Part shown: positions 6,641 through 39,534 of the stretch, one piece after another
Position numbering within the stretch: the stretch's first letter is position 1
How the letters are laid out: each line of letters opens with the position of its first letter
DNA from: Limisphaerales bacterium
Lineage (GTDB): Bacteria > Verrucomicrobiota > Verrucomicrobiia > Limisphaerales > SIBE01
Length of the DNA: 45,388 nucleotides
Reading direction: 5' to 3'
NCBI GenBank assembly: GCA_044225505.1
Contig: JBGAIN010000049.1
Coordinates: 1 to 45,388 of the forward strand
Made by a program: the position numbers and the translations under genes
Notes under the pieces: model-generated
Seen by the model: the letters and a program-made list of their open reading frames with translations, nothing else
The model's database searches: none
Told to the model about the DNA's origin: nothing

Positions 6641-8028
6641 ATGAAATCAAATCGACGATTCAGGAAAAGGTCGACGGTGCTGTTCGCACTAGCCGCCATT
6701 TTGTCATCAACAACGGATCAGGCCTTCGCGGCTACAAAACACTGGGACGGCGGCGCTTTGACTGGCGGCCCGAGCTGGAACACCCCGTCAAACTGGGATG
6801 GGCCTGATCTCTTGCCCAATTTTTCAAGTCCAGGGGACGACATCATTTTCGACAACGCGGCAACGTCGGGAACGAGCACAGGGCTTGACGGAAGCAAAAC
6901 AATTAACAGCCTGACCTTCTCGGCCTCCGACAACGCCAACTTCGCGATCCTTGCTGGGACAACCGCCAATAGCACGCTAACCATCACGACAGGCAATTTA
7001 TCCAAATTGGGAAATGGAGCTCCTCAGATTTTTGCCGGCGTGGTTCTTGGAGGAACACCGTTTCCAGCTTGACCGTCAGCGGTGTCATTTCCGACGGCGG
7101 CAACGGTTACGGGATCACCTTTTCTGGGCCAGGTAGGACCATCTTGACGGGAGCGAATACTTACTCTGGATTGACGATCGTCAGCGCCGGCACGCTAACG
7201 CTCAACGCCAATTCCGGAGCTGCAATGCCGGGAAACTTGGAAATCTCCGGAGGTACCGTCAGCCTTCCTAGAGGCAACCAAATTGCCGACTCAAGAAACA
7301 TCACTGTTAGCGGCGGCATTCTCGATTTACAGGCTAACAGCGACACCGTTGGTCCCGTAGTTCTGCAAAATGGATCCATTACGGCTTCGAGTGGAACGCT
7401 GACCGGCAGCAGTTTCGACGTTCAAAACGGCTCGATTACCGCCAAACTGGCGGGCGCGGGAGCCAGCCTTAACAAAACTTCTGCTGGAACCGTGACACTT
7501 TCGGGCGTTAACACTTAAAGTGGCGGAACCGTCCTCACCACAGGGATCTTGAAGCTTGGAGTCAACAATGCCATTCCCAACGCGGGCCTCACGTTTGCCG
7601 GAGGCACTCTCGAACCTAACAATTTCTCGGATGCGCTCGGCGCGTTGTCACTGACCTCGGGCAGTTCGATCATCAAACTCGATCCTACAGGCAATGCCGC
7701 GAACCTCAGCTTCACGTCCGTGGCCTCTGGGGCGCGCTTGACACTGACAATTGATGGTTGGCACGGCACAACAGGCAGCGCTGGCAGCGCTAGCAATGAT
7801 AGAATAACATTCGCCAGCGATCCAGGAGCGGCTTTTCGCAATGCGGTCTCTTGGACCAGTGTGAATGGCTCCCAATCGATTCAGGGAGCGCTTTATGTCG
7901 GCGACGAACTTGTGCCGGTGCCGGAGCCGGCCAACGTGGCACTGGCGATTTTCGGCGGCGCTTTCTTGGGATTTGGGGCGGCGCGTCGTGCCTGGAGCCA
8001 CTGTCGAAGACAGGCCTTGACGTCCTAG
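6641..8028 (+). pseudogene. Disrupted PEP-CTERM protein with autotransporter-associated beta-strand repeats
   Basis: Signal peptide, W..GxSWNTPSNW, repeats LTGANTYSGLTIVSAGTL and LSGVNT*SGGTVLTTGIL, C-terminal VPVPEPANVAL+TM+RR. Frameshift near 7046-7069 and in-frame TAA at 7516-7518 where Tyr is expected. Confidence 0.85.
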
Positions 8029-8179
8029 TCTTAGCGTGACCCTTCGTTCGCACAGCCTGAGCGACCGAACGTAATATGGCCAAGGCGTGGGGTATCCTTC
8101 AGGTTTAACGGACCATTGACGAAAGGGCGCTGGCTATGATCTCGACAGGAAGAGGAATACTCCGCACAGCGTATCGAGC

Positions 8180-9703: not shown

Positions 9704-10371
9704 CCCGCGGTTATGCGGTAGCCAACCCCTCGGACGGTATCGATGAGTTTGCGGCTGGCTTCACCGTCGACCTTTTTCCTAATCCGTTGAACGTAGACAT
9801 CCACGAGGTTGGTCTCCGGATCGAAGTGATAGTTCCACACCTGCTCGCAAATCTGGACTCGTGTCAGCACGCGTCCAGGACTCTTCATCAAATGCTCCAG
9901 CAGTGCGAACTCGCGAACCGTTAAGTCAATCTTTTGCCCAGCGCGAGTGACCTCGCGGGTGAGCAGGTTCAGAGTGAGATCTTCGAAGGAAAGGATGCTC
10001 TGCGACGCCCCGGAAGCGCGCCGAGCCACCGCATGAATCCGGGCAACGAGCTCCTGAATATAGAAAGGCTTGGTCAGGTAATCATCGGCTCCGAGGTTCA
10101 ACCCTTCCAAGCGTTCATTCAATTCACTTCGGGCTGTAAGGAGAATCACGGGCAATGGCATTCTCCGCTCGCGCAGGCCTTTGAGAATGCTCAAGCCATC
10201 ACGACCTGGGAGCATAATGTCCAGCACGAGCACGTCATACGGTTTAGAGGTTGCCAGCGTAAAGCCGGTGGTGCCGTCCGGGCAGACGTCGACTACGAGA
10301 CCCGCGGCTTCCAGCCCTTTGCGAACGAAGGACGCGATCTTCTTTTCATCCTCTATAACCAGGATCTTCAC
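9700..10371 (-). CDS. OmpR-family response regulator (CusR/CzcR-like)
   Basis: MKILVIEDE, LDIMLPGRDG, GADDYLTKPF, C-terminal winged helix ETNLVDVYVQRIRKKVD..TVRGVGY. Confidence 0.95.
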   Translation of the reverse strand: MKILVIEDEKKIASFVRKGLEAAGLVVDVCPDGTTGFTLATSKPYDVLVLDIMLPGRDGLSILKGLRERRMPLPVILLTARSELNERLEGLNLGADDYLTKPFYIQELVARIHAVARRASGASQSILSFEDLTLNLLTREVTRAGQKIDLTVREFALLEHLMKSPGRVLTRVQICEQVWNYHFDPETNLVDVYVQRIRKKVDGEASRKLIDTVRGVGYRITAG

Positions 10372-13488: not shown

Positions 13489-14139
13489 CTAAAGCCGGGT
13501 CTCCAGATTGGGCAACGCCTCTGCTTGCACTAGAAACAAGTCGGATTGATCCTCCGCCAGAAGCAACCGGAAAGCAGCCCTGTTCAGCAGCGTTGACCAT
13601 TCTTTCGCCGGAGGAAGAAAATCATGACCGATGGCTCCGCCAATCTTATGGTGAAAGTTGTTTAGATGATCGCTGCCGGCGAGGTGGAGCACGGTCAAAC
13701 ATCCGCCCGGCTTGAGATGCCTGCTGATTTGACGCAAGGCGGTCGGCTGATCGCGGAAATGCGGGAACGAATTGAAGCAAAGCACGAGGTCGAACTGTCC
13801 GAGCGCGAGGGGTTCCGCTTGGCAGATGTCCGCGAGAACGAACTCCGCCTCCACCCGACGCTCGCGCGCCTTCCGCAACATCGCCGGGGAAAAATCGATT
13901 GCGTGCACCTTCCCAGGGCGGACCAAATCCGCCAGCCAAGCGGTGACCAACCCGGTGCCACAGCCGACCTCCAGCACGTCCAGGCCAGTTCGAAGCCCCA
14001 GCTTTAGCTTCAATTCATTCAAGCGTTGGAGCGTGCGAACGGGATCAGGGCCAGTCTGATCCCAAGTCGGCGCATGATGATCAAAGAAGGCGATGCGTGG
14101 ATCCTGGATCAGGCCGCGGGCGAAAGACGGATGCGTCAT
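13489..14139 (-). CDS. Class I SAM-dependent methyltransferase
   Basis: FFDHHAPTWD, motif I VLEVGCGTG, AIDFSPAML, FDLVLCFNSFPHF, LKPGG. Confidence 0.92.
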   Translation of the reverse strand: MTHPSFARGLIQDPRIAFFDHHAPTWDQTGPDPVRTLQRLNELKLKLGLRTGLDVLEVGCGTGLVTAWLADLVRPGKVHAIDFSPAMLRKARERRVEAEFVLADICQAEPLALGQFDLVLCFNSFPHFRDQPTALRQISRHLKPGGCLTVLHLAGSDHLNNFHHKIGGAIGHDFLPPAKEWSTLLNRAAFRLLLAEDQSDLFLVQAEALPNLETRL

Positions 14140-14162
14140 ACGATTTTTTGATTGCGTAACAC
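14135..14162. promoter_or_regulatory. Putative NikR operator 1
   Basis: GTCATAC-N14-GTAACAC (28 bp), overlapping the methyltransferase start codon. Confidence 0.65.
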
Positions 14163-14173
14163 CCGAGTTCGAA

Positions 14174-14201
14174 ATATTACGTGTTTCTATGTACGTAACA
14201 T
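14174..14201. promoter_or_regulatory. Putative NikR operator 2
   Basis: ATATTAC-N14-GTAACAT (28 bp, near-palindromic), overlapping the likely start of the secreted-protein gene. Confidence 0.6.
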
Positions 14202-15379
14202 CGCCTATTCACCCGGGTCAAGGTTCCTTTCGTCAACTCGTTCGCTCCGCTACGTCCTCGGCTTGGCTCGTGGCGGCATTGGCCATGTCACTGACGGTCG
14301 GCCGAGCAGAGTCGCACGCCAATCTCCAGTCCGTTAAGGTCGACGGGACCAGCGATTGGAACGGGACCTTTCCGTTCACGATTCAAGGAGTGCTGCTCTG
14401 CAATCCCGACGAAATGCTGGACTTCACTCCGAACTTTCTGCCCTGGAATGAAGGGGCCAACCAATACCGCATGGGAGGCGAATGGCAGGTCACACTCCAG
14501 GCGGTGGATGCAAACGATCGCGGCGGGACGACGTGTTGGATGGGGCAGAACTATGGAAACCAACCCTGGATCCACGACAGCGCGCTCAGTTACGCAAACG
14601 AAGCGTGGGTGTCCGAAATCCTGCGCCTGAACTTCGACCCATCGAGTCTGCATCCGTTCCGCGCGGGCGACTTAATCGAAGTCACGGTGCGCCAGGCATT
14701 ATTCTATGGTGGAAAACGCAATATCAACGAGGGGCATGACATCGACGCCGACTACAATTTCGACTTCCGGCTCGTCACCGCCAACTATGGGTTGCCGGCG
14801 CCCGAGGTCATCTCCTTAGGCAACGTCATGCAGCCGGGAGGCGACGAGGCCGATTGGAAGACCTGGCCCGCGATTTTTGATGCCAGTCGAGCCACGGGTG
14901 GGGAGCATTATCAGGGGATGCGCGTTCGGATCAATGATCTGACATTGCTCAGCACCAATGGGTGGAACGCGACGAACACCTGGAGTTCGCGCCTCTGCAC
15001 CGTCACGGACGGCAATGGCCGCTATTTCTCCCTGCGTCACCCCCGCTACAGCCTAGGGAGCGCTCCCGCCGGTGTGTTCGATGCGATAGGCATTTTCAAT
15101 CAGGAATCCGGGTCTGGAACCACTGGGACCAACGGTTACGAACTGTTTGTGCAACAAGTCCTGCCGCATGTGCCGGCGCCGGACGTGGCGATTGGGCTCA
15201 ACGTGACGGTAACTTGGCCGGTTTTCAGCGACGACTATCAGCTTGAGTGGCGCAGCAAGGTGGATGTCGGGGAATGGACACCCATGACAAACTCGGTTGT
15301 TGTGATCGACGGCAAGAAGACAGTGATCCTTCCACCGTCCAGTCCGCAACGGTTCTACCAACTACGGAAGACCAACTGA
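14189..15379 (+). CDS. Secreted hypothetical protein (possible OB-fold-like domains) with RFYR-type C-terminal module
   Basis: Signal peptide ..WLVAALAMSLTVGRA|ES; AGDLIEVT, EHYQGMRVRINDL, GVFDAIGIFNQ; tail VTWP..YQLEW..W..PQRFYQLRK. Exact start uncertain. Confidence 0.8.
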   Translation: MYVTSPIHPGQGSFRQLVRSATSSAWLVAALAMSLTVGRAESHANLQSVKVDGTSDWNGTFPFTIQGVLLCNPDEMLDFTPNFLPWNEGANQYRMGGEWQVTLQAVDANDRGGTTCWMGQNYGNQPWIHDSALSYANEAWVSEILRLNFDPSSLHPFRAGDLIEVTVRQALFYGGKRNINEGHDIDADYNFDFRLVTANYGLPAPEVISLGNVMQPGGDEADWKTWPAIFDASRATGGEHYQGMRVRINDLTLLSTNGWNATNTWSSRLCTVTDGNGRYFSLRHPRYSLGSAPAGVFDAIGIFNQESGSGTTGTNGYELFVQQVLPHVPAPDVAIGLNVTVTWPVFSDDYQLEWRSKVDVGEWTPMTNSVVVIDGKKTVILPPSSPQRFYQLRKTN

Positions 15380-15490
15380 CACGTTGGCAGATCCGCGAAA
15401 TCTATCCGGCCGCGAAAGGCTTGGCGCCCGGGGCTTCCTCTGCCCAAACGCAAGCCTCGCTCTGTTTTGGCGCCTTTTAACACCGCAAGA

Positions 15491-16504
15491 ATGAAACCAA
15501 GAAAGAAGTCGCAAAAAGCCCCTCCCATCGAAGTTTGTGGACGGGTGAGTGGCTTCATAGAACACCATTACCGGCACTTCAACGCCGCCGTCCTGGTAGA
15601 CGCGGCCCGTGCCTACCGCGAACAACTCGAATCGGGTAACCAGATGATGGTCACTCTGGCGGGGGCCATGAGTACGGCTGAGCTGGGATTGTCGCTCGCT
15701 GAGATGATTCGCCAGGACAAGGTCCACTTGATCTCCTGCACAGGCGCGAATCTCGAGGAGGACGTGTTCAATTTGGTTGCCCACGACTTTTACGAGCGCG
15801 TGCCGGGGTATCGGGAGCTCTCAGCGGTTGACGAGGAAGCGCTGCTTGAGCGCCATCTCAACCGTGTCACCGACACCTGCATCCCGGAAGGCGAAGCGAT
15901 GCGCCGGATGGAGAAGGCCATGCTGGATGTCTGGACAGCCGCGGATCGGAAGGGGGAACGCTGGTTTCCTCACGAGTTCTTCTATCAGGTCTTGAGAAGC
16001 GGCCGGCTCAAGAAACACTACCAGATTGATCCGAAGAACTCATGGATGCTAGCGGCGGCGGAGAAGAGCTTGCCGCTGATCGTGCCCGGGTGGGAAGACT
16101 CGACGCTGGGTAACATGTATGCCGCCGCGTGTCTGCGCGATGACGTCAAGAACGTTCATACGGTGCGGACGGGCATCGAATATATGCGATGGCTCGCGGT
16201 CCATTACCGGCAAGTTACCTGGCGGCGAGGGCTTGGAATGTTTCAAATCGGGGGTGGGATCGCCGGGGACTTCCCCATTTGTGTGGTGCCACTGCTCCAG
16301 CAGGACATGGGTTTTGAGACGCGCCTCTGGTCGTACTTTTGCCAGATCAGCGACTCCACTACCAGTTACGGCTCTTATTCGGGCGCCGTGCCAAACGAAA
16401 AGATCACTTGGGGCAAACTTGGCAAGGCGACGCCCAAGTTTATCATCGAGTCCGATGCGAGCATCGTCGCACCACTTATTTTCGCCTATGTCCTTGGGTG
16501 GTAA
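15491..16504 (+). CDS. Deoxyhypusine synthase family protein
   Basis: HFNAA, TLAGAMSTAELG, SCTGANLEED, IGGGIAGDF, DSTTSYGSYSGAVPNEKITWGK (catalytic Lys in WGK), SDASIVAPL. Confidence 0.93.
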   Translation: MKPRKKSQKAPPIEVCGRVSGFIEHHYRHFNAAVLVDAARAYREQLESGNQMMVTLAGAMSTAELGLSLAEMIRQDKVHLISCTGANLEEDVFNLVAHDFYERVPGYRELSAVDEEALLERHLNRVTDTCIPEGEAMRRMEKAMLDVWTAADRKGERWFPHEFFYQVLRSGRLKKHYQIDPKNSWMLAAAEKSLPLIVPGWEDSTLGNMYAAACLRDDVKNVHTVRTGIEYMRWLAVHYRQVTWRRGLGMFQIGGGIAGDFPICVVPLLQQDMGFETRLWSYFCQISDSTTSYGSYSGAVPNEKITWGKLGKATPKFIIESDASIVAPLIFAYVLGW

Positions 16505-16595
16505 GTTCCACCGGAAGTTATTCGAGTGATGCGGCTAGCTCCATCAAACCGTTCCAACCTCCGCTCGAGAACCGCAAGGAGAAACGGAAAGATCC

Positions 16596-16623
16596 GTATG
16601 ATGTTTCTTATTTGCCGTAACAC
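16596..16623. promoter_or_regulatory. Putative NikR operator 3
   Basis: GTATGAT-N14-GTAACAC: left half equals the E. coli NikR half-site GTATGA, 28-bp span, 24 bp upstream of the prepilin-ABC operon. Confidence 0.7.
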
Positions 16624-16647
16624 TGCGGAACGGATAGCCTTCGGCCA

Positions 16648-17328
16648 GTGAATGGAAAATCCCAGCCGTGCCTTTCGGGCTTCCCGGGTCTCCGGACGAA
16701 TGGGATAGGCTTCACTCTGATTGAATTGCTCGTGGTAATCGTCGTGATCGGCGTGCTGGCCAGCTTGCTTTTGCCAGCGCTTTCCATGGCAAAAGAGAAA
16801 GCCAAGGTCGCCAAGGTCCACGCGGAGCTCTACGGAGTGGGCCTTGCCTTGGAGATGTACTCAGACGATCACGAAGGTCAATTGCCGCCCGTCCGGGTGG
16901 ACTGCAACACCGATCTCTCCACTCACTGGTGCCAGTTTCCGATCGAGCTAGCCACTGACGGCTATTTGCCTCGTGGAGACAAACCTGGTTTGGCGGCTAA
17001 CATGGAAGACGTTTTTAACCGCGGACACTCCTACAAGTATGCCACCCCGGGTCCCCAATTGCTGAACGGGAGTTCGGGTGGGAACTTCAGGTTGTGGGTG
17101 CCCGATGATTTTCCAATGTGCGCGACAAATTCGGGGAAATACTACTCCACTCGCGAAGGCTCCCCAGCGCGCTGGGTGGTGTGGAGCTTGGGCCCCAAGC
17201 CAGACAGCGCGAAGACCCAGGATGATCATGCGCCGCTTACGGGCGCGAGTTGGTATCGGCGCACTCGAGACAGTGGAGTAATCGCCCGGATGTCGACCAG
17301 AGAAGGAGTGCAGCTCAAGACACCTTGA
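16648..17328 (+). CDS. Prepilin-type N-terminal cleavage/methylation domain protein (type IV pilin/pseudopilin-like)
   Basis: G|FTLIELLVVIVVIGVLASLLLPALSMAKEKAK class III signal; LEMYSDDHEGQLPP; WSLGP. Confidence 0.9.
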   Translation: MNGKSQPCLSGFPGLRTNGIGFTLIELLVVIVVIGVLASLLLPALSMAKEKAKVAKVHAELYGVGLALEMYSDDHEGQLPPVRVDCNTDLSTHWCQFPIELATDGYLPRGDKPGLAANMEDVFNRGHSYKYATPGPQLLNGSSGGNFRLWVPDDFPMCATNSGKYYSTREGSPARWVVWSLGPKPDSAKTQDDHAPLTGASWYRRTRDSGVIARMSTREGVQLKTP

Positions 17329-17337
17329 GAGGATTGA

Positions 17338-17493
17338 ATGAAGCCCCCCACACTCCTCGCTTACCTCAAAGGAATGGCCACCCGCTTGGAAGGGCAGCAA
17401 CGGAAAGGTCAGGAGATTTTCCTGCTGAAAGAGCTGCCACCGGAACATCCGGCACGAAAGTTCGCGAGAGAGATCAACCCGCAGTTCGAGTAA
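17338..17493 (+). CDS. 51-aa microprotein within the operon
   Basis: GAGAGGA RBS then MKPPTLLAYLKGMATRLEGQQRKGQEIFLLKELPPEHPARKFAREINPQFE*; fills the gap between the prepilin and SBP genes. Confidence 0.5.
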   Translation: MKPPTLLAYLKGMATRLEGQQRKGQEIFLLKELPPEHPARKFAREINPQFE

Positions 17494-17514
17494 CTGCTTC
17501 AGACACTCGTTATT

Positions 17515-18372
17515 ATGTCAGCTCTTCGAATCTTCCGCATTCCAGCAAGAATGATCTGGGGTGCAGGACTGCTCGTTCTGTTCCTTCTAGCTCCGGCTTG
17601 CCAGCGTCCCTCGGAGTCCAGCGAGGGTCTGGCGCTCGCGACAACGACTTCCTACCTCGAAGCTGCGGTGCGAGATTTGCTTGGCGATCCGGTGCGCGTG
17701 GTGCGTCTGGCTGAACCAGGCACCTGTCCCGGCCATTTCGACGTCCGCCCAAGCCAGGTGCAGGAGCTTCGGAGTTGTGCCGTCGTCTTTCGGTTCGATT
17801 TCCAGAAATCGTTGGATGCCAGATTCGCGGATGCCGGGACCAATCGCCCACCGGCGGCGGAGATCGCCATTCGCGGCGGGATGTGCCGGCCGGATAGCTA
17901 CCTTTCCGTCTGCCATCAGGCGGCCGACCACCTGGTCCGATTGAAACTGCTCGCTCAGACGAACGCCGAGTCGCGTCTGCACTCCATTTCCAACCGGCTC
18001 GACGCTCTATCGCGTGTTGTCGCGAATCGGGTTCGGCAAGCCGGACTCGGCGGTGCTTCCGTAATCACGAGTGGTCATCAGCGCGATTTTTGCCAGTGGC
18101 TCGGTCTCGATGTCGTGGCCACTTTCCGTGCGGCGGACGCGGCGAGCATCCGCGAGATTCAAGAGACCATTGACGTCGGCAAGCTTGCTCAAATCAAATT
18201 TGTGATCGGCAATCTTCCCGAGGGCCATCGCACCGCCGACGCGCTCGCCGAGCGGCTCAAAACCCGCGTCGTCGTCTTCGAGAATTTCCCCGCGTTAAGG
18301 GATGGTCGAGTGTCATTCGACGAAATGCTCACCGCCAATACCGATGCTCTTTTGAAGAGTGCCACCCCATGA
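17515..18372 (+). CDS. Metal ABC transporter substrate-binding lipoprotein (ZnuA/cluster A-I like)
   Basis: Lipobox-like LLAPAC; ATTTSYLEAAVRDLLGD; PGTCPGHFDVRPSQVQEL; adjacent to ATPase and permease. Confidence 0.85.
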   Translation: MSALRIFRIPARMIWGAGLLVLFLLAPACQRPSESSEGLALATTTSYLEAAVRDLLGDPVRVVRLAEPGTCPGHFDVRPSQVQELRSCAVVFRFDFQKSLDARFADAGTNRPPAAEIAIRGGMCRPDSYLSVCHQAADHLVRLKLLAQTNAESRLHSISNRLDALSRVVANRVRQAGLGGASVITSGHQRDFCQWLGLDVVATFRAADAASIREIQETIDVGKLAQIKFVIGNLPEGHRTADALAERLKTRVVVFENFPALRDGRVSFDEMLTANTDALLKSATP

Positions 18373-19169
18373 CATCACCGGCCGTTGAGATCCGCCGCCT
18401 GGCTGTCCATCGTGGTGGCCGGTGTCTCTTGGATGTCGAACATGCCCAACTCGATCAGGGCAATGTGGTCGGGCTCATGGGGCCGAATGGGGCTGGCAAA
18501 ACCACCCTGCTCCGAGCGTGCCTCGGATTGATTGTGCCGACGGGCGGGGAGATCGTCGTCTTGGGCGAGAGTGTTCCCTTCTTGCGCCTGTCCGCCTTGG
18601 CGCGTCTTCGACGCCGGATTGGATTCGTCCCCCAAATGCCGCCTGTTCGTAGCGAGATTCCAATAACCGTTCGCGAGGTGGTGGTGATTGGACGAACGGC
18701 CCACCGGGGTTTGTTCCATCGACTGTCGGGCGACGACTGGGACCTTGCGGACCAGTGGATCGATCGCTTGGGTCTCAGTCCGCTGGCTGATCGTGCCTTT
18801 GGGCAAATCTCTGGCGGTGAACAGCGCAAGACCATCATTGCCCGGGCTATGGCACAGGAGCCAGAACTGCTCCTGTTCGATGAACCGACCGCCAACCTCG
18901 ATCTCGGCTGGCGGGAACGCATCGTCGCTCTGATCCAAAGCCTCCATGAGCAAACCAAGATCAGCGTGGTCCTGGTTTGCCACGAACTTGAGGTTCTGCC
19001 GCCTTGTTGTCGGCAGGTCGTCTTGTTGGAAGCGGGCCGTGTCACCGCGGCCGGCCCTCCGGAAACCGTTTTCACGACAGAACGAGTGCGGAGACTCTAT
19101 GGGGCGAACCTGAGGACAGTACACCAGGACGGACGCCACGCGACCCTTCCGGGAGGCGCGTATGATTGA
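18369..19169 (+). CDS. Metal ABC transporter ATP-binding protein (ZnuC/MntB-like)
   Basis: Walker A GPNGAGKT, signature ISGGEQ, Walker B LLLFDEPTANLD, H-loop VCHE. Confidence 0.95.
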   Translation: MTSPAVEIRRLAVHRGGRCLLDVEHAQLDQGNVVGLMGPNGAGKTTLLRACLGLIVPTGGEIVVLGESVPFLRLSALARLRRRIGFVPQMPPVRSEIPITVREVVVIGRTAHRGLFHRLSGDDWDLADQWIDRLGLSPLADRAFGQISGGEQRKTIIARAMAQEPELLLFDEPTANLDLGWRERIVALIQSLHEQTKISVVLVCHELEVLPPCCRQVVLLEAGRVTAAGPPETVFTTERVRRLYGANLRTVHQDGRHATLPGGAYD

Positions 19170-19992
19170 CCTGGTCTTTTGGTCGCCAGTCATGGTGGGG
19201 GGGGCGTTGGCCGGAGCTTCGAGCGGCCTGCTCGGAACGTTCATCGTTGGGATGCGCATTCCGTTCCTGGGCGTCTGCGTTGCCCACGCGGCATTAGCCG
19301 GGGCTGTTTTCGGCGGGTTGTGCGGACTGGAAGGCCAGCAACTTCTATTGCCGGGTCTCGCCGGAGCCATCCTGACAGCACTGGCCCTGGGCCTGCTGAA
19401 CCCAGGGCAAGCGCGACTTGACGACAACACCGTCCTGAGCTTTCTGTTCTCCGCCACGATGGGCCTCGCGTTTCTGGGCATTGGACTGTATGGAATCCTC
19501 GGCAAGAGCGATCACGATGTGCGCAGCTTGCTCTGGGGCAGTCTCAACTTCTGCCGCTGGAAAGACGTGCGGCTGATGCTTGGCTCGTCCTTGGCTCTGG
19601 CGGCTTTTATCGTCGTTTTCTTCAAGGAGCTGCGAGCGATCCTCTTTTCCCGTATGGAGGCTGAGGCCGTGGGCATCCGCGCGACCGCAGTCTGGACCGG
19701 CTTCCTCATTCTTACCGCTGTGAACCTGACCGTGAATTTTCAAACCGTGGGCGGGCTGATGATCTACAGCCTGATGAGCAATCCGGCAGCGGCCGCGATG
19801 CAAGTGAGCCGCGGGTGCCGTCAGGTCCTTTTGCTGTCGGCGACGTTTGGGGCAGTTAGCGGTCTGGGCGGTTTCCTGGTGGCCGCGGCGACGGATCTGC
19901 CCAGCGGCGCTGTGATCGTGCTGACCTCTTCCGCTCTGCTCATGGGCACCGTTTTGGTCCGTCGCCACCTTGATGGGGTGAAGCCATCGTGA
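19162..19992 (+). CDS. Metal ABC transporter permease (ZnuB/ABC-3 family)
   Basis: GVCVAHAALAG, SLLWGS, FFKELRAILFS..AEAVGI, QTVGGLMI, DLPSGAVIV. Confidence 0.93.
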   Translation: MIDLVFWSPVMVGGALAGASSGLLGTFIVGMRIPFLGVCVAHAALAGAVFGGLCGLEGQQLLLPGLAGAILTALALGLLNPGQARLDDNTVLSFLFSATMGLAFLGIGLYGILGKSDHDVRSLLWGSLNFCRWKDVRLMLGSSLALAAFIVVFFKELRAILFSRMEAEAVGIRATAVWTGFLILTAVNLTVNFQTVGGLMIYSLMSNPAAAAMQVSRGCRQVLLLSATFGAVSGLGGFLVAAATDLPSGAVIVLTSSALLMGTVLVRRHLDGVKPS

Positions 19993-20098
19993 AGTCGGGT
20001 CGGTTCGGCCACGGCGGTTTTCTCTGAATAAGGGGGGACACTCAGCTGATGAGCTGGCTATTTCATTCTGTCAGAGAATCTCATAGTCTTGGACCTAC

Positions 20099-20527
20099 AT
20101 GAAACAGGAACAAGCAGCCCGCTTTAGCGTCTCACTGCCACCCAAGCTCCTTCGGGACCTTGACCAGATGACGCAGGAAAAGGGCTATGACAACCGGTCC
20201 CTGGCCGTTGCAGACATGATCCGAGCGCACCTGGTCGAACACCGCCAGAACTACGGCGAAACCGAGATCGCTGGAACGATCACTCTGGTATACGACCATC
20301 ACAAGCAGAACGTGCAGTCGACGCTGACCGACATCCAACATGACCATCACGATGTCATCATCTCCTCGCTCCATGTGCACTTGGATCATCACAATTGCCT
20401 CGAGGTTCTGGCCGTCCGCGGAAAGGCGCTCGTCATCAAGAGAATTTCTGATGCGTTGATCGGTGCCAGAGGCGTCAAACATGGCAAGCTGACGATCACC
20501 ACGACCGGCAAGGAGTTGGCCGTATGA
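20099..20527 (+). CDS. nikR: Nickel-responsive transcriptional regulator NikR
   Basis: RHH RFSVSLP..GYDNRSLAVADMIR; ACT-like domain GTITLVYDHH, QHDHH, SLHVHLDHHNCLEV, GVKHGKL. Confidence 0.97.
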   Translation: MKQEQAARFSVSLPPKLLRDLDQMTQEKGYDNRSLAVADMIRAHLVEHRQNYGETEIAGTITLVYDHHKQNVQSTLTDIQHDHHDVIISSLHVHLDHHNCLEVLAVRGKALVIKRISDALIGARGVKHGKLTITTTGKELAV

Positions 20528-20767
20528 GCTGTCGACGGGTGGTCCAGCCTCAGCTGACCCTTCTCATCCCAGCCTTAAAGCTTGCGTAACACTCGCAAAG
20601 TCGAAAGCATGCCTCTGGTCTCCGAATTTGAAGCATGGCTCACCTTGCTCGCAGGGCACTTAGGCCGGGCCGTTGAAACCTGCAGGTCTGGTTTGAGCGA
20701 GTGCATCCGAATCGGCCCCGCCGGCGTAGAGAAAGAAATGACCTATGTTTGATTTCGGTGCGTGGTG

Positions 20768-21316
20768 ATGAAACTCTACCGCCAGCTGACCTGCCTTTAT
20801 CTCGCCTGTTGTCTCGGGTTGGCTGGCGCAGCGGGAATCAGTCCCTCCTTCCATCGATTGATCGAACACGGGGGGCGCGGTGCTCCACACACGCATTTCG
20901 GAGTTTCTTCTAGCGCCGTTGAATCGTCCCCATCGACCGACCCTGGGAGCGGCGCTTTCCCTTGGCATAGTTCTTCTTTTTTGCTCTCAGAAGTCCATCA
21001 ATTCAACAGGTTAGTCGTTCCAGAGGATGGGCTCGACCAACGTTCGAGTCCTCGTTCTTTACGTCCGAAGCAGGACCTTCACAATTTCTTGGAAGCCGAT
21101 CCTGCGGGAAAGCCAACTCCTTCCGACCAAGCGCCTCGCCACCATCATGACAGTTTGCCACAGAGGATCGCGAGCGGTCTTCTCGATCTGCACCTGGATT
21201 ATCCGTTGCTTTGTCATCCTAGGGGGCTTCTGGCTCGTCGGTCGTCGCCTTCCGATGTTCCCGCCGTAGTCCGAGATTGGGATATTCAAACGGCCCCGCG
21301 TGGTCCCCCCGGTTGA
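20768..21316 (+). CDS. DUF2946/CruR-like His-rich leader protein ending in RGPP
   Basis: N-terminal hydrophobic segment, SPSFHRLIEH, PHTH, RHHHD, C-terminus TAPRGPPG*; directly upstream of a TonB-dependent receptor. Confidence 0.75.
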   Translation: MKLYRQLTCLYLACCLGLAGAAGISPSFHRLIEHGGRGAPHTHFGVSSSAVESSPSTDPGSGAFPWHSSSFLLSEVHQFNRLVVPEDGLDQRSSPRSLRPKQDLHNFLEADPAGKPTPSDQAPRHHHDSLPQRIASGLLDLHLDYPLLCHPRGLLARRSSPSDVPAVVRDWDIQTAPRGPPG

Positions 21317-21523
21317 CTTCGTTCGGTTCCCTTAAGAATTTCCAAGAACTGTCAGGCCAGAGTCCAAATCGGCTTGCGTCAGCCCTAACGCCAACGCCTA
21401 AGCCTTCCTGTGCGCGTCCTATTGTATCGGGCTCAACAAACGGCCCCTCTTCGATAGCGCATGCTCCGTCGCCTGAGAGGTTCAAGTCCCAGAATTCCAA
21501 TCCAGTCAACATGAAAACCATCT

Positions 21524-23743
21524 ATGAGAAACTTCAGAAACTTAGTTTTTCGGCGGGCCAAAACGAGCGCTCGGCCGATACCATTGCCCACCCGATTCCA
21601 CGCCGCAGCCCTCGTCCTGGCCTGGGCGAGTTGCAGAATGATTCAGGCCGAAGATAGCAGCTTGACCAATCCGCCGTCCGCGGCGGCGACTGGTCTCTCC
21701 ACGAATCAATCAATCCGGTTGCCTGAAATGGTAGTGCAAGGGCGCCAGGACAGTCTTTTGAACATATCGGACTCAGCCACGCAGGGTACGGTCGGAGCCG
21801 CGCAAATCGAGGCTCGTCCATTGCTTCGCTCAGGCGAGATCCTGGAGACGGTGCCCGGCGTAATCATCACTCAGCATGCGGGTGGCGGAAAGGCTAACCA
21901 ATACTTCCTCCGCGGTTTCAACCTGGACCATGGGACAGACTTTGCGACGTTCTTGGATGGCATGCCGCTGAACCTGCCGACCCACGGACATGGACAAGGG
22001 TATTCGGACATGAACATCGTGATCCCCGAATTAGTGCAGCGAGTGAACTACGAAAAGGGTGTTTACTATCCAGAAAATGGGGACTTTTCGTCCGCCGGTT
22101 CGGCGCGGTTGGACTTTTACAAGGTGCTCCCGCAGAGTCTGGCCCTTGCGGAAGGCGGCATGTACGGGTATTTCCGCGGCGTTTTCGCCGAATCGCCCAA
22201 GGTCGGGCCAGGCAACCTTCTCTTTGGCGGTGAGTTCTCCCATTCGGATGGGCCTTGGGAACGCCCCGACGATTACCAAAAGTTCAACGGCATTGTGACC
22301 TACAGCCAGGGGGACGCAGCCAATGGCTTTAGCGTCACGGGCCGCGCCTATCATGGCAAGTGGAATTCGAGTGACCAAGTAGCGGAGAGTGCCATCGAGA
22401 GCGGCTTGGTGCCGTTTTTCGGTTCTCTGGACAACACAACGGGAGGGGACTCTCAACGCTATAGCCTCCAAGGCGAGTGGCACCGCGCCGACGAACGGTC
22501 CGCGACCAAAGTGATGGCCTATGGCTTCTACTATGATTTGGACCTGTTCTCCGACTTCACCTATTACCTGGCCGACCCTCTCCGCGGAGATCAGTTCGAA
22601 CAGACTGATAAACGGGGTGTGGTGGGCCTCGACGCCAACCATACCCTGTTCGATCAGTGGTGGGGCAAAGAAGTGGAAAATACGTTCGGTCTTCAAGTGC
22701 GGAATGACTGGATCAACAACGGGTTGTTTCAGACCCAAAACAAAGATCGGGTCGATAAAATTGATGTGACGCATAATGATTTTCCGCTATCGGCCACCAC
22801 CCGCAAAGATGACATCACCGAAACCAGCGTTGGCTTTTATTTGCAGAACAAGATCCAATGGGCGGACCGGTTCCGTAGTGTGGCGGGGGTCCGCGGCGAC
22901 ATCTACAATTTTGATGTCAGTAGTGATCGTTCGCAGAATTCGGGCTCCGAGCTTTCCGCGATTGGCAGCCCGAAACTGACCCTGGTCGCTGGGCCTTGGG
23001 CCAAAACCGAAGTCTACGTTCAAGGGGGATTAGGATTCCACAGCAACGATGGCCGTGGTGTTTCGACTCGAGTCGATCCCGTGACCGGCGTCGGCACAAA
23101 TCTCGATGGAGATGCCGTGGTGCGCGCTGACCCGCTCGTTCAAACCTACGGAGCCGAGATAGGAGTGCGGACATTGGCTGTCCCAGGATTGCAAAGCACG
23201 CTCTCTTTCTGGTGGCTGGACGTCGATTCTGAGTTGGTTTTTGCGGGAGACGCTGGCACGACCGAGGCGAGCAGGCCCAGTCGCCGATATGGCCTGGAGT
23301 TCGCCAATTACTATAACTTGACCAAACATCTGACCCTGGACGCCGATCTTTCCTTCTCGCACGCTGAGTTCAGAGATCGCGCTCCGGAGGGAGATCGCAT
23401 CCCAGGCTCTATCGAGAGCGTTGTTTCAGCCGGGATTACCTATCGCGCGGACCGTGGTTTCTTTGCCGGATTGCGCCTGCGTTACTTCGGACCGAGACCT
23501 CTGATCGAGGATAACAGTTTCCGATCCAGCGAAACCATCCTCCTGAACGCGGCGGTGGGTTACCAGTTCAACAAGACGTGGACGTTGACAGCAGAAATCC
23601 TGAATCTTCTCGATCGCCGCGATCACGACATTGATTACGCGTATGAATCGAGAGTTCAACCAGGAGACCCTTCCTTCGATCAGATTCATTTCCACCCCGT
23701 GGAACCAATTCAAGCCAGGTTTGGGATCACGGCCAGGTTCTAG
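21524..23743 (+). CDS. TonB-dependent outer-membrane receptor, probable Ni/Co specificity
   Basis: TonB box EMVVQG; plug ILETVPGVIITQHAGGGKANQYFLRGFNLDHGTDF..HGHGQGYSD; NLLD; terminal IHFHPVEP..GITARF. Confidence 0.95.
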   Translation: MRNFRNLVFRRAKTSARPIPLPTRFHAAALVLAWASCRMIQAEDSSLTNPPSAAATGLSTNQSIRLPEMVVQGRQDSLLNISDSATQGTVGAAQIEARPLLRSGEILETVPGVIITQHAGGGKANQYFLRGFNLDHGTDFATFLDGMPLNLPTHGHGQGYSDMNIVIPELVQRVNYEKGVYYPENGDFSSAGSARLDFYKVLPQSLALAEGGMYGYFRGVFAESPKVGPGNLLFGGEFSHSDGPWERPDDYQKFNGIVTYSQGDAANGFSVTGRAYHGKWNSSDQVAESAIESGLVPFFGSLDNTTGGDSQRYSLQGEWHRADERSATKVMAYGFYYDLDLFSDFTYYLADPLRGDQFEQTDKRGVVGLDANHTLFDQWWGKEVENTFGLQVRNDWINNGLFQTQNKDRVDKIDVTHNDFPLSATTRKDDITETSVGFYLQNKIQWADRFRSVAGVRGDIYNFDVSSDRSQNSGSELSAIGSPKLTLVAGPWAKTEVYVQGGLGFHSNDGRGVSTRVDPVTGVGTNLDGDAVVRADPLVQTYGAEIGVRTLAVPGLQSTLSFWWLDVDSELVFAGDAGTTEASRPSRRYGLEFANYYNLTKHLTLDADLSFSHAEFRDRAPEGDRIPGSIESVVSAGITYRADRGFFAGLRLRYFGPRPLIEDNSFRSSETILLNAAVGYQFNKTWTLTAEILNLLDRRDHDIDYAYESRVQPGDPSFDQIHFHPVEPIQARFGITARF

Positions 23744-23770
23744 ATATTCAACTCCAAAAGCGACCACTGG

Positions 23771-24538
23771 ATGGCAACATCCGAGACATCAAAGCCGATT
23801 GCTGCCGCTGCTTCCGGGGCGGCGCAATCGGCTGTCCTTTCTCTCGCCAGAATGGAGCGGCTCAAGGCAGCTGATGAATCGAACGATCTTGCGCTCTTGA
23901 CGCTCCTGCTTTGGGTGTTTTTCCTTTGTATCGGCGTCCTGGGGTTTTCGCTCCACTATGAGCGCCCGGTCGCTGGAATTCCGCCTGTGGAACAAATTGT
24001 CGCAGAACAATTGCAGGTTGACCTGGCGCCCGAACCTCTTGACCAGGCGCCTCTCAAACCCCCGACCTTCGAACCGCCGGAACTCCCTGACGAGCCTGGT
24101 CCCATCGCCGTCATGGAAGCTATTGCTGTTGCCCAGCCAAGTCCGGCTTTGGCATTTGCACTTCCGGTGGAAGGCCCCACTCGGGTTGTCGACGCAAAAC
24201 GTGCCGCCTATGTCGCACCCGCAACAACCGCCCGGATAGTCACCGCTCCGTCCGACCTGTCACCGCCCGTGCAACAGCTTACGTTTGGGCAGGGGGAAGG
24301 AAAACAGGTGGCCCCGGAATACCCTCCTGCAGCCCGACGGTTGGGACAGGAGGGAACTGTTTTGGTGCGGATTTCCGTCGGCCAAGATGGACGTGTACTG
24401 AAAGCCGAGGCCAAGGTGCCTTCTCCCTGGCCGCTCCTCAACGAAGCTTCCGTGCGGATCGTCCGTGAGCGTTGGCGATTTCATCCTGGGCCAGCGCGCC
24501 TGTATGAAGTTGCCATCCGCTTTGAAATCGTAAAATGA
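23771..24538 (+). CDS. tonB: Energy transducer TonB
   Basis: TM with SLH, Pro-rich linker, C-terminal PEYPPAARRLGQEGTVLVRISVGQDGRV..RWRF. Confidence 0.9.
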   Translation: MATSETSKPIAAAASGAAQSAVLSLARMERLKAADESNDLALLTLLLWVFFLCIGVLGFSLHYERPVAGIPPVEQIVAEQLQVDLAPEPLDQAPLKPPTFEPPELPDEPGPIAVMEAIAVAQPSPALAFALPVEGPTRVVDAKRAAYVAPATTARIVTAPSDLSPPVQQLTFGQGEGKQVAPEYPPAARRLGQEGTVLVRISVGQDGRVLKAEAKVPSPWPLLNEASVRIVRERWRFHPGPARLYEVAIRFEIVK

Positions 24539-24557
24539 CCTCTGCAATTTCTGACCT

Positions 24558-25268
24558 ATGACACCGATGCTGGCTCATCTTGCCCTGGACTTCTTCCTAA
24601 AGGGTGGACTCCTCATGTGGCCGCTGCTCGTCTGCCTCCTTGCCGCGCTGTTCGTGGTGCTTGAGCGCGCGGTGTGGTGGTGGAGCCTAAAGCGACGGTG
24701 CCGGCCGGAAGCGCTTGCCGAGACATTTAGCGCCATCAGTGAAGGGGATTTTACGCGCGCGGTCCGGCTGAGCGACAACCCCGAAGACCCGTACTTGCTC
24801 ACAATCCAGGCAGGCCTGTTGCACGCACACGCTTCGATGCTTGGGGCGATGCAGCTTCGCGCCACGGAGGAACTCGAATGTGCTGAGAAACGGCAATGGA
24901 TTCTGGGCACGTTTATAACCTTGGCGCCGCTCCTGGGGTTGATGGGAACTGTCACCGGCATCATGCATTCGTTTCACTTCGTCGGCAGCGAGGAGTTGGC
25001 GGCCGTCAAAGTCAGCGGCGGCATTGCCGAGGCGCTCATCGCTACGGCGTGTGGTCTTGGGATCGCCATCCTCTGCCTGTTACCTTTCAACCTTTTCAAT
25101 CGAAAGCTGGCGCAGTTTCGACTCCGGCTCGAGCGCACGATTAATCACACGGAATTGCTCGTGGAATCCGCCAAGCACCACGGGCACGATCTGGAGTCAT
25201 TTGCCAGGGACCGGGCATTACGAACCGACCGTGAACCAGCGGCGCTCAAAGGTGAGGCGAGCCGCTAA
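24558..25268 (+). CDS. exbB: MotA/TolQ/ExbB proton channel
   Basis: [38 protein letters not shown]. Confidence 0.93.
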
Positions 25269-25287
25269 GCACAAGAAAGAATTCCCT

Positions 25288-25716
25288 ATGCCTGTTAAGC
25301 TTGGCTCGAAGCTGCCCACCGAAAACGAGGCGCGCATCGAGATTATTCCGCTCATCGACATCATGTTCTTTCTCCTCGCCGCTTTCATGCTCGTCAGCTT
25401 GAGCATGGTGAACTTGAAGAGCATTAAGGTGAACTTGCCCACCGCAACAGCTGCCACCCTAGAAACCAAGCGAAACTTCGTCACGATTTCCGTGGACCGC
25501 GCCGGGGCCGCTTACTTCGACAAGCAACTCGTGGGGCCAAACGAACTGACCCAGCGCCTTTCTGCCTGGCGCAAGACCAACGAAGAAGTGCGAGTTTTCA
25601 TCAGCGGCGATGCCGACGCGCGCCATGGGGACATTATTCACGTGCTTGATTTGGTGCGCTCGACTGGCGTAGAGAGAATCGCCTTCGAAATCCGCCCCGC
25701 TACGGCGTCTCGCTAA
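25288..25716 (+). CDS. exbD: Biopolymer transporter ExbD
   Basis: IEIIPLIDIMFFLLAAFMLVS, VNLPTA, ISGDADARHGDIIHVLD; start MPVKLG at 25288. Confidence 0.93.
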   Translation: MPVKLGSKLPTENEARIEIIPLIDIMFFLLAAFMLVSLSMVNLKSIKVNLPTATAATLETKRNFVTISVDRAGAAYFDKQLVGPNELTQRLSAWRKTNEEVRVFISGDADARHGDIIHVLDLVRSTGVERIAFEIRPATASR

Positions 25717-25723
25717 ACAGGAC

Positions 25724-26227
25724 ATGAAGCGGCTCGATTACTTGAATTTGATCGGCGTGCTCGCGCTCGCCGCGCTCTGCGTCGCGCAGTGGCGTCGCGA
25801 CCGTCAATTGAACCTTGAAATCAATCAGTTAGAGAACGTTCGATTGCAACAGGAAGCTAAAATCGTTGAGCAAGAACGGTCGATGCACGGACTTGACGAA
25901 GATCTTGTGCATTTCAAAGAGCAGTTCCTCAAGGCGGAAACAGCCACGACCGAGTCCGGGCAGAAGCTCCGCGCCGCCGAGCGTGAAATCCGTCAATTGA
26001 CGCTGGAACGAGATCAGCTAAAGGGTAGCATCAACAACTGGGCCTCGGCTGTTACGGCACGAGACGAGCGGTTGACGGAAGCCAACGCGCAGATCCGTCG
26101 ACTCGCCGACGAGTTGAATGCTTCCATTCGCAAGTTCAACGAACTCGCCACGAATTACAATGCCACGGTGAAAGATCTAAATGACCTTCGTTCCCGAGTC
26201 GCGCAACCAAAGCCAGCCAGTCAATAG
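25724..26227 (+). CDS. Single-TM long coiled-coil protein
   Basis: TM NLIGVLALAALCVAQW then ~140 aa of heptad-rich sequence. Confidence 0.8.
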   Translation: MKRLDYLNLIGVLALAALCVAQWRRDRQLNLEINQLENVRLQQEAKIVEQERSMHGLDEDLVHFKEQFLKAETATTESGQKLRAAEREIRQLTLERDQLKGSINNWASAVTARDERLTEANAQIRRLADELNASIRKFNELATNYNATVKDLNDLRSRVAQPKPASQ

Positions 26228-26270
26228 AAACTCGGCAAGGCCCCTCGTTCACTATAAACATCCCTTCAAC

Positions 26271-26900
26271 ATGGACCTAGACGACAAATCTCAGCCGCGG
26301 ATCACCTCGAATGCGAAAAGCAATCGGCTGGTCTTTTATCTGTTGTTCGCTTTCTTCACGCCGTTAACTGCCATGGCCCATACCGAGAGTGGCACCGCGG
26401 GAGGTTTTCTCAGCGGATTTAACCACCCGCTGACCGGCCTGGATCACATCGTTGCCATGGTCGCCGTGGGGCTGTGGGGTGCGTTCCTTGGACCCCCGGC
26501 CATGTGGATCCTACCGGTGGTATTCCCGGTGGTGATGGCACTTGGAGGAGCCTTGGGGATTCTTGGTGTGCCCATCCCAAAAGTTGAGATCGGGATTGCC
26601 CTCTCCGGCGTCATCCTGGGCCTAATGGTGGCTTTCGCCGCTCGGCCTTCCTTAAGAATAGCCGCGGTGATTGTCGGCTTTTTCGCCATATTCCACGGCC
26701 ACGCACACGGGACAGAGCTTCCAGAATCTGCGAATGCGCTGACCTTCGCCATTGGTTTCGTCGTTTCCACCGGACTTCTTCATTTGAGCGGTATCGCCCT
26801 GGGCCTTCTGGTGCGCTGGCCTTGGGGTAAAATCGTTGTGCGCATGGGCGGCGCCGCCATCGCCATGATTGGCTTCGGCTTTCTTTTCAAGATTCTCTAA
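26271..26900 (+). CDS. HupE/UreJ family nickel transporter
   Basis: AMA|H, GFNHPLTGLDHIVAMVAVGLW, FAIFHGHAHGTE, GLLHLSG. Confidence 0.93.
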   Translation: MDLDDKSQPRITSNAKSNRLVFYLLFAFFTPLTAMAHTESGTAGGFLSGFNHPLTGLDHIVAMVAVGLWGAFLGPPAMWILPVVFPVVMALGGALGILGVPIPKVEIGIALSGVILGLMVAFAARPSLRIAAVIVGFFAIFHGHAHGTELPESANALTFAIGFVVSTGLLHLSGIALGLLVRWPWGKIVVRMGGAAIAMIGFGFLFKIL

Positions 26901-26901
26901 C

Positions 26902-27528
26902 ATGAACCGATTCCCGTTGTCCCAACACTCCCGCTTGCTGTGCTTTTTGTTCCTTCTTGTCTTGCCAGTCACCGGTCACGCGCATTCAGTCGGCACTGGA
27001 GGAGAGATTGCCAGTGGGATGCTTCACCCCCTGCTCAATCCCAGCCATGTTCTAATCCTCGTCGGTCTGGGATTGGTGATTGGCCAACATTCTCCGTTGG
27101 ACCTAGAAACACCGGTGAAAATTTCAATGCCGGTTTCTGCCTTGGCTCTGCTGCTGACAACGACCGGCGCGATTCCAAACGTTTATCAGCCAATTCTAGC
27201 CTCGATCGCACTCGCCGCCGGAGTTCCCGTCGCGCTGGAAAAAGCGCTTTCGCCTTTGGTGTGCAACGTTTTTGTGGGCGTTGGCATATTCGCTATAGGA
27301 CTTGATTCCGGGGTTGAAGGCGGATCTCCGCTAGGAACATTCAAGACTCTCTCCATGACCTGGGTGACGTTGAATCTCGTGGTCTTCAATCTGGCTTTTT
27401 ACGTATCGGCGATGACCAAGAAGAAGTGGACAAAGGTCGGTATCCGAGTCTTGGGCTCATGGCTGATCGCCATTTCGTTGCTGGTCTTGGCGTTTTACTT
27501 CAAGAAACATCGTTCGGTCGGTGGCTAA
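26902..27528 (+). CDS. Divergent HupE/UreJ-like membrane protein
   Basis: GHA|H, GMLHPLLNPSH retained; FHGxAHG absent; RVLGSWL C-terminus. Confidence 0.75.
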   Translation: MNRFPLSQHSRLLCFLFLLVLPVTGHAHSVGTGGEIASGMLHPLLNPSHVLILVGLGLVIGQHSPLDLETPVKISMPVSALALLLTTTGAIPNVYQPILASIALAAGVPVALEKALSPLVCNVFVGVGIFAIGLDSGVEGGSPLGTFKTLSMTWVTLNLVVFNLAFYVSAMTKKKWTKVGIRVLGSWLIAISLLVLAFYFKKHRSVGG

Positions 27529-39212: not shown

Positions 39213-39534
39213 GCTCCTGGGTGGAAACGCAGTACGACTTGGGCAGCCAGCGGTTAATCTCATTCCCTTAACTCTTAGCGATCGATGTCCGGAGCGCTAT
39301 ACTACTTCCGAACTACAGACAGGCGTGCGGGATGGGATGGAATCTCCGGGTCTCACATCGTTTGGCATCCTTCCGAAGGCTCCAGTTGGACAGCTTTCAG
39401 TAGAATCTCGAACTCGTTACACGCGCTGAAAGGCTTAACACTCTCCTCCGATTCCTTGAAGAAAGTGATCAGTTTCCGTCCTTATTCGCCGTTCCGACGG
39501 AGAAAACGTACGATCCTAACAACCAAGGAGAGCG

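Follow-up and report, generated by a model that had tools for sequence, protein, structure and literature searches.

A conserved histidine-type leader peptide ending in RGPP upstream of a TonB-dependent receptor gene in a Limisphaerales bacterium, a probable relative of the copper-responsive arrest peptide CruR

A small open reading frame (ORF) with histidine clusters and a C-terminal Arg-Gly-Pro-Pro (RGPP) motif lies directly upstream of a TonB-dependent receptor gene on contig JBGAIN010000049.1 of a Limisphaerales bacterium (phylum Verrucomicrobiota; GenBank assembly GCA_044225505.1). The whole stretch analysed, positions 1 to 45,388 of the forward strand (45,388 nucleotides, nt), is referred to here as the window, and the ORF, of 182 amino acids (aa), as the leader. 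The leader was originally predicted to be a nickel-sensing ribosome-arrest peptide that controls the receptor operon. The leader and the spacer that separates it from the receptor gene contain the following features.

20768–21316, plus strand: leader ORF, 182 aa, ATG start and TGA stop, member of a family of 134 clusters
20768–20839, plus strand: residues 1–24, a basic N-region and a hydrophobic segment of about 18 residues
20840–20896, plus strand: residues 25–43, N-proximal ligand motif SPSFHRLIEHGGRGAPHTH, pattern SPxLHxxxEHGGxGxxHxH
21140–21178, plus strand: residues 125–137, second His motif, HxHxSLxQ(L)(L)xxG
21179–21277, plus strand: residues 138–170, linker of variable sequence and fixed length, with no gaps in 115 aligned members
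21278–21310, plus strand: residues 171–181, predicted arrest segment WDIQTAPRGPP, conserved in the family
21314–21316, plus strand: TGA stop, one codon past the RGPP motif
21317–21523, plus strand: spacer of 207 nt with C 67, G 42, A 49 and T 49, C-rich and G-poor

An alternative in-frame GTG start is present at 20762. Residues 7–24 of the leader are hydrophobic, and small residues occupy positions −1 and −3 before Ile24/Ser25. Judged by eye and by a helix at residues 2–24 of the AlphaFold model, this N-terminal segment is a putative export signal or N-in anchor. The model is mostly coil, with a mean predicted local distance difference test (pLDDT) score of 68.2, which fits a leader peptide rather than a folded protein. 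The clusters FHRLIEH and HTH fall within residues 28–43 and RHHHD at residues 124–128, the latter opening the segment RHHHDSLPQRIASG (residues 124–137). The C-terminal end reads WDIQTAPRGPPG and is followed by TGA, with RGPP at residues 178–181 and a single further residue, Gly182. The hydrophobic N-terminus, the three His clusters and the terminal PRGPPG before the stop were all as described in the original prediction, and its hand count of 67 C and 42 G in the 207-nt spacer was exact.

Across the whole genome, R[GA]PP within the last 14 residues was found in 49 of 56,754 mechanical ORFs of 50–300 aa, seven of which also have a hydrophobic stretch. The leader protein has no Pfam match (E ≤ 1) and no NCBIfam match, and a protein atlas search returned unnamed clusters only. 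An ORF at 21277–21657 was rejected as a gene; it overlaps both the leader and the receptor genes. A word-indexed homologue search with the single leader protein as query matched only the leader itself. A family profile was then built from four relatives encoded in other genomes of this order. Searched against 1.84 billion representatives, it retrieved 134 clusters (E ≤ 1e-3), of which 110 score at E ≤ 1e-10 or better. The motif whose conservation the original prediction had staked itself on is kept: R[G/A/P]PP occurs near the C-terminus of 124 of the 134 clusters (65 RGPP, 48 RAPP and 11 RPPP), and the His motifs stand at fixed distances from it. The remaining 10 clusters are short or partly matched and look like fragments. 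One family member (L070, genome G745, contig C97) is truncated and lacks the R-x-P-P tail. The leader is a member of a real, conserved gene family, by which a chance ORF is ruled out.

Three blocks of conservation were apparent among 115 full-length members. The first comprises Pro26, Leu28, His29, Glu33, His34, Gly35–36, Gly38, His41 and His43, of which Pro26, His29, Glu33, His34, His41 and His43 are at least 90% conserved. His125, His127, Ser129, Leu130, Gln132, Leu134 and Gly137 form the second, and Trp171, Gln174, Thr175, Ala176, Arg178 and Pro180–181 the third. The 115-member alignment has no gaps between column 124 and its end, and distances from the Arg of the R-x-P-P motif are correspondingly constant: among 124 members, His is found at −53 in 116, His at −51 in 118, Ser at −49 in 97, Gln at −46 in 98 and Gly at −41 in 116. 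By a strict motif pattern, exactly 50 residues intervene between the second His and the Arg in 97 of 104 members, and 49 or 51 in the others. The stretch between Gly137 and Trp171 is 33 residues long and keeps this length despite its varying sequence. By analogy with force-sensitive arrest peptides it reads as a ruler, presumed to span the ribosomal tunnel (residues 138–170). Exactly four residues follow PP in 77 of 124 relatives and one residue in six, the window copy among these.

Within the window's order 401 genomes were sampled, and 44 of them contained members of the family. In a phylum-wide sample, with eight candidates scored per genome, the leader was found in its own genome alone (1 of 401). 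A degenerate DNA pattern returned six loci, all labelled Verrucomicrobiota, Limisphaerales or Opitutaceae and mostly Limisphaerales.

The genes around the leader are as follows.

20099–20527, plus strand: NikR, present once in the genome; 240 nt separate it from the downstream leader
21524–23743, plus strand: TonB-dependent receptor (Plug and beta-barrel)
23771–24538, plus strand: TonB
24558–25268, plus strand: ExbB
25291–25716, plus strand: ExbD
25724–26227, plus strand: coiled-coil protein, tightly packed behind ExbD
26181–26900, plus strand: HupE/UreJ-family permease 1 (E 2e-56)
26869–27528, plus strand: HupE/UreJ-family permease 2 (E 1.6e-6)

The genes from the receptor to the second permease are packed on one strand. 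Of 41 leader loci with flanks, a set that includes non-independent loci of the same genus, 31 have a receptor homologous to that of the window following the leader on the same strand, as the original prediction had led one to expect. Downstream sequence is available for 34 strong members (E ≤ 1e-13), and in 30 of these the next gene is the same receptor type. The exceptions are three RPPP-type loci (L069, L071 and L073), where DUF1559/prepilin-like (N_methyl) genes follow, and the truncated L070. Genes flanking the leader-receptor module are otherwise variable. A Protein Data Bank (PDB) sequence search with the receptor returned YncD and PqqU alone (E about 3e-9) and is uninformative on substrate. 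At one locus (L068, genome G001, contig C49) the receptor gene that follows the leader is broken into ORFs 7617–9329 and 9400–10005, which may reflect a frameshift or an assembly error.

An export-type N-terminus, conserved His/Glu motifs, a mean His content of 7.8% among relatives and the receptor alongside could also describe a working exported His-rich metal-binding protein, such as a periplasmic chaperone or receptor partner, in which RGPP would have no regulatory role. This is made very improbable, though a dual role is conceivable, by RxPP, which in 124 of 134 clusters keeps a fixed distance from both the stop and the His motif, as well as by the largely coil model. Moreover, RAPP and RGPP are reported to be counter-selected in proteomes, and RGPP to be the most robust arrest core in reporter contexts (PMC12992588); in CruR, the R-x-P-P motif is described as required for regulation (PMC9426467).

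CruR, the copper-responsive arrest peptide of Bordetella, belongs to the DUF2946 family (PF11162). The profile comparison with DUF2946 that the original prediction had proposed was negative at Pfam's own level: the leader scores below the gathering threshold (23.7 bits), and a PF11162 search of the whole genome misses the leader ORF. The window leader has no CxxC, and beyond residue 30 this motif occurs in one of 134 relatives. For a local CxxC comparison set, 12 DUF2946 genes were extracted from the window's order, 11 of which carry CxxC. DUF2946 genes above the cut-off are found in 13 of 401 genomes of the order, one of which (G478) has both leader types. In all 11 local CxxC leaders the second Cys stands exactly 45 residues before the Arg of RAPP, the spacing reported for CruR (PMC9426467), and Gln132 of the His family shares this register, also 45 residues before Arg. 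Several local DUF2946 leaders start with ..SPELH..H.. past the membrane segment and resemble the His family there; hhalign against DUF2946 leaders aligned the N-terminal 30 columns only, at a probability of 91.6% (E 8e-7). With relaxed settings the His family and the CxxC leaders are collinear over 125 columns. In the C-terminal profile alignment the two Cys are matched by Ser129 and Gln132, a conserved Gly by Gly137 and RAPP by RGPP. One receptor-linked member, L078, matches both models, at E 1.6e-6 for the family model and 0.0013 for Pfam DUF2946.

On the basis of these alignments the His family is taken to be a divergent branch of the CruR superfamily, below the Pfam threshold, in which the Cys pair was apparently lost and the HxH residues 2 and 4 positions upstream, together with the N-proximal His/Glu motif, are conserved instead. 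On this reading the proposal that His replaces CxxC is supported in a refined version: Ser129 and Gln132 fall on the Cys positions and the invariant His125 and His127 lie just upstream, all of them in one register relative to the Arg.

The two types head different outer-membrane systems within the window's order. Behind 12 DUF2946 leaders (among L084–L101), the next gene encodes a protein of at least 356 aa without a Pfam family in 11 cases, with frames that reach the locus ends. A TonB-receptor plug domain was found behind a DUF2946 leader in one case only (L096).

The spacer has a C–G excess of 25, a value reached by 0.6% of 207-nt windows on the plus strand. In the first 120 nt past the leader stop of 31 leader-receptor loci, the mean C–G was +9.3 versus +2.0 for background, and the value lay above the locus's own local mean in 25 of the 31. 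Rho is encoded in the genome. No intrinsic terminator was found in the spacer, and a promoter scan gave 0 sites. The spacer is a candidate Rho loading and termination region. No Rfam match was found in 19900–22000, and the fold of the 291-nt segment 21270–21560 was not significant (z = −1.12; 27 of 200 shuffles at least as stable). A riboswitch was rejected, there being neither an Rfam match nor a structure.

These data also bear on a translational form of arrest, following the logic of SecM or CutF, in which the stall would remodel the mRNA and expose the receptor start region, with metal possibly inducing the stall. CutF, a DUF2946 member, is described as acting in this way on cutO (bioRxiv 10.1101/2025.02.05.636593), and some spacers in the family are short, 34–64 nt by longest-ORF calls. 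Such a mechanism is judged quite improbable at this locus, insofar as the spacer region folds no better than its shuffles, no CutF-type hairpin over the downstream ribosome-binding site is predicted in 21270–21560, spacer lengths across the family range from about 0 to 303 nt, and the base composition suits a Rho site. It would also be physiologically backward for excess metal to induce an uptake receptor.

Taken together, the leader is probably a histidine-type relative of CruR that attenuates the receptor-TonB-ExbBD-HupE operon. In CruR, a stalled ribosome is reported to block Rho-dependent termination, and copper sensed by CxxC to relieve the stall and turn the receptor off (PMC9426467); during the stall the P and A sites are reported to hold its two Pro codons (PMC12992588). 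By analogy, the present leader is proposed to stall, to bind metal, to respond in the same direction and to act through Rho. It would be the first translated gene of an operon comprising the receptor, TonB-ExbB-ExbD and the two HupE/UreJ genes. The ribosome would stall on R178-G-P-P181 with Pro180 (21305–21307) in the P site and Pro181 (21308–21310) in the A site, a position predicted from the CruR toeprint. Halted just before the stop, it would shield the C-rich spacer from Rho, and polymerase would read into the receptor genes; the metal-starved cell would represent the ON state. At stalling, His125 and His127 would be 53–55 residues behind the P-site Pro180, just outside the exit tunnel. 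When metal is plentiful the conserved His motif would bind it, perhaps with participation of the N-proximal His/Glu motif, and metal-induced folding or pull would free the arrest and allow translation to end two codons later. Rho would then load on the spacer and terminate transcription before the receptor, giving the OFF state. Sensing could take place in the cytoplasm, as in CruR, or across the membrane, as in CutF.

The signal-like N-terminal segment would equally suit a secretion monitor of the SecM/ApdA type, where the pull of export alone frees the arrest and no metal is sensed; RAPP-type monitors of Sec/YidC are reportedly known. The genes downstream of the leader, however, are for metal uptake and not sec or yidC, and the invariant His/Glu ligands at the position of the CruR sensor would have no role, which leaves this explanation hardly credible.

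The metal to which a CruR-type attenuator would respond here was assessed from gene context. Two HupE/UreJ genes in the same operon suggest nickel or cobalt at this locus. At L055, in a genome of another taxonomic family, a HupE pair 74% identical to that of the window is found some 3.5 kb away from the module. The only NikR gene of the window's genome adjoins the leader, and urease and [NiFe]-hydrogenase genes are present in this genome.

Several observations weigh against the arrest reading or its nickel version. The window copy is atypical in having one residue past PP rather than four and in lacking the central His-rich tract present in most relatives. DUF2946 is grazed by only five of 115 relatives, with a best E of 0.016, and hhalign of the C-terminal halves gives a modest result (probability 65.7%, E 5.8e-5, 53 columns). 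The excess of C over G is modest family-wide, falling in the locus's own top 10% in 11 of 31 loci, and the related genomes are not independent. As to nickel, 99 of the order's 401 genomes encode NikR. It stands beside the leader in one of 41 loci, and it is encoded in four of 44 leader-bearing genomes versus 95 of 357 without the leader (overlap counted by hand) and in one of 30 genomes having a leader match at E ≤ 1e-29. NikR-type repeats take the form GTGTTAC-N13/14-GTAACAC or GTATGAT-N13/14-ATCATAC (PMC545781). No NikR-type site was found in 20528–20767 with up to three mismatches, the enterobacterial form not having been searched as a full pattern. In the sister genome G002, NikR is the last gene of a conserved string, behind genes for a 428-aa unknown protein and a prepilin-like protein, and neither a leader nor a receptor is found close to it. 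CobW/COG0523 genes, which would fit zinc, occur near the modules of L044, L052 and L060, and distant leaders adjoin Fur-family regulators and ZnuABC genes.

These last observations, from the NikR counts to the separate operon of NikR in G002 and the zinc-type neighbors, are also those that favor the same arrest switch with zinc, or a broad Irving-Williams set of divalent metals, as effector and with an accidental adjacency of NikR. Ligand sets made up of His and Glu alone discriminate poorly among Ni, Zn and Co. On the other side stand the two HupE/UreJ genes in the same string here, the pair near the module in L055, the nickel enzymes of the genome and the placement of its single NikR at this locus; COG0523 proteins, moreover, are not exclusively zinc-related. 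On balance a zinc or broad-divalent switch appears unlikely. For the effector at this locus, nickel or cobalt taken together is somewhat favored, the chances of Ni(II) itself are about even, and zinc is a lesser but real contender. The evidence for nickel comes from this locus only, and across the family the effector may be Ni, Co or Zn. The originally predicted Ni-specific switch layered on NikR control is unsupported or weakly supported, given the single locus in 41, the four of 44 genomes and the lack of a box in 20528–20767; the HupE/UreJ genes nevertheless suggest Ni/Co here.

Further observations concern NikR and its surroundings. In 20500–20800 there are no inverted repeats with arms of at least 6 nt, short self-overlapping palindromes aside, and a lone GTAACAC half-site is found at 20586. 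The NikR string of G002 (L106, contig C2, 9635–11967, minus strand) matches the window genes of 14093–20527 at 49%, 70% and 70% identity and is without the ZnuABC-like genes, leader, receptor and HupE. Since this string is conserved in G002 without the leader module, NikR may belong to an upstream unit with the 428-aa and prepilin-like proteins. NikR-box-like sites (GTGTTAC-N14-GTAACAC, up to three mismatches) number four in the window versus 0.5 expected, a count reached by none of 100 shuffles, and lie at 14135–14162, 14174–14201, 16596–16623 and 39414–39441. Two of them are placed before the 428-aa ORF at 14093. Another of the four, reading GTATGAT-N14-GTAACAC, is located 25 nt upstream of the gene at 16648, the first in a one-strand gene string extending from 16648 to 27528. 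The window sites were not found in the homologous G002 locus. Upstream of NikR, at 17515–18372, the window encodes a ZnuA-like binding protein with a weak Pfam ZnuA match (E 3e-15) and a Cys-Pro-Gly-His stretch.

Among the distant leaders, those of L075 (5706–6119) and L079 (6785–7213) adjoin divergent Fur-family regulators, and those of L076 (6950–7342) and L080 (6229–6606) head a string of an unknown protein of about 500 aa, ZnuA and ABC-3. All four are 125–142 aa long and carry one or two Cys at the Ser/Gln positions of the His family, which suggests zinc-type versions of the same switch.

The genome of the window (G000) contains three R-x-P-P leaders: the His type ahead of the receptor-HupE genes, a CxxC type ahead of a porin-like gene and ZnuABC, and a third ahead of DUF1559. 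The second (L104, contig C283, 5127–5450, minus strand) has 107 aa, a membrane segment and H..CLIC, and ends in ..PPERAPPLSRS; its match to Pfam DUF2946 has an E of 0.57. It is followed by a 499-aa protein with a weak porin-like match, ZnuA, an ABC ATPase and an ABC-3 permease. The third (L105, contig C151, 1955–2284, minus strand) ends in ..LLPERAPPLLLL and precedes a DUF1559/prepilin-type (N_methyl) gene, as do the RPPP-type relatives of L069, L071 and L073 in three other genomes.

A bolder extension, advanced only tentatively and rather doubtful, is that the exchange of Cys for His retuned a CruR-type sensor to respond to a borderline metal, at this locus Ni(II), instead of Cu(I), with the distance to the peptidyl-transferase center kept. 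The leader would then be the first nickel-responsive arrest peptide, and the three paralogous leaders, each ahead of a different uptake system, would form a modular set of co-translational metal sensors. Metal-sensing arrest peptides are experimentally known for copper only (CruR and CutF). Literature searches, with the supplements of the survey (PMC12992588) and CruR (PMC9426467) papers outside their scope, found no description of a His-type or nickel- or zinc-responsive arrest leader. If the proposed function is correct, a family that keeps the CruR ruler and swaps Cys for His would show the nascent-chain sensor to be modular and would extend the mechanism to the uptake of Ni, Co or Zn, for which the literature found describes DNA-binding regulators only. 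The leader could also be the main regulator of an uptake route in genomes where NikR is not found, NikR being encoded in one of the 30 strong genomes. The fixed distances (His −53/−51, Gly −41) predict the position that a ligand must occupy relative to the ribosome if it is to release an RGPP arrest, and the more than 100 natural variants in the family are a resource on force- or folding-dependent arrest release.

Among known systems, CruR (Bp2923 of Bordetella pertussis) is the closest in design. As described for CruR (PMC9426467), each is a small gene that opens an operon containing a TonB-dependent transporter, and each combines an N-terminal export signal, putative in the leader, with a metal-ligand motif whose distance from the C-terminal R-x-P-P is fixed, the R-x-P-P itself lying a few residues from the stop. 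Both have a long intergenic region with C in excess of G and a poorly structured product. Unlike CruR, the leader is without CxxC and has HxH and a second His/Glu motif past the signal segment; it is longer (about 180 versus about 145 aa), comes from Verrucomicrobiota and precedes a receptor of another type. Gene context points the leader toward Ni/Co or Zn rather than Cu.

The leader also fits the class of small ORFs with RAPP or RGPP that was recently surveyed (Fujiwara et al., EMBO J 2025, PMC12992588), being shorter than 300 aa with RGPP near its C-terminus and having a signal-like N-terminus and a downstream TonB-dependent receptor on the same strand. In that survey, RAPP/RGPP small ORFs with signal peptides are reported to be enriched upstream of TonB-dependent receptors. 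The class is treated there statistically; the main text contains neither 'nickel' nor 'DUF2946', and the supplements may list members of the present family.

CutF of Rhodobacter capsulatus, also of DUF2946, is described as an exported leader peptide with a metal motif, whose proline stall at the C-terminus governs the gene behind it, a design proposed for the present leader as well. It differs in having CxxxC and PPP and in that copper induces its stall (bioRxiv 10.1101/2025.02.05.636593). The CutF stall is reported to melt a hairpin over the ribosome-binding site of the next gene, and its target is a detoxifying oxidase, whereas that of the leader is an uptake system.

SecM, ApdA, ApdP and ApcA have in common with the leader an R-A/G-P-P core (RAGP in SecM) and conserved residues a few positions upstream. 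The SecM motif is W...Q-A-Q-G-I-R-A-G-P, which the W-x-x-Q-T-A-x-R-G-P-P of the present family recalls. These peptides reportedly monitor Sec/YidC activity and precede secretion genes. In the leader, by contrast, what is conserved upstream of the core is a set of putative metal ligands, and the genes controlled would serve metal uptake.

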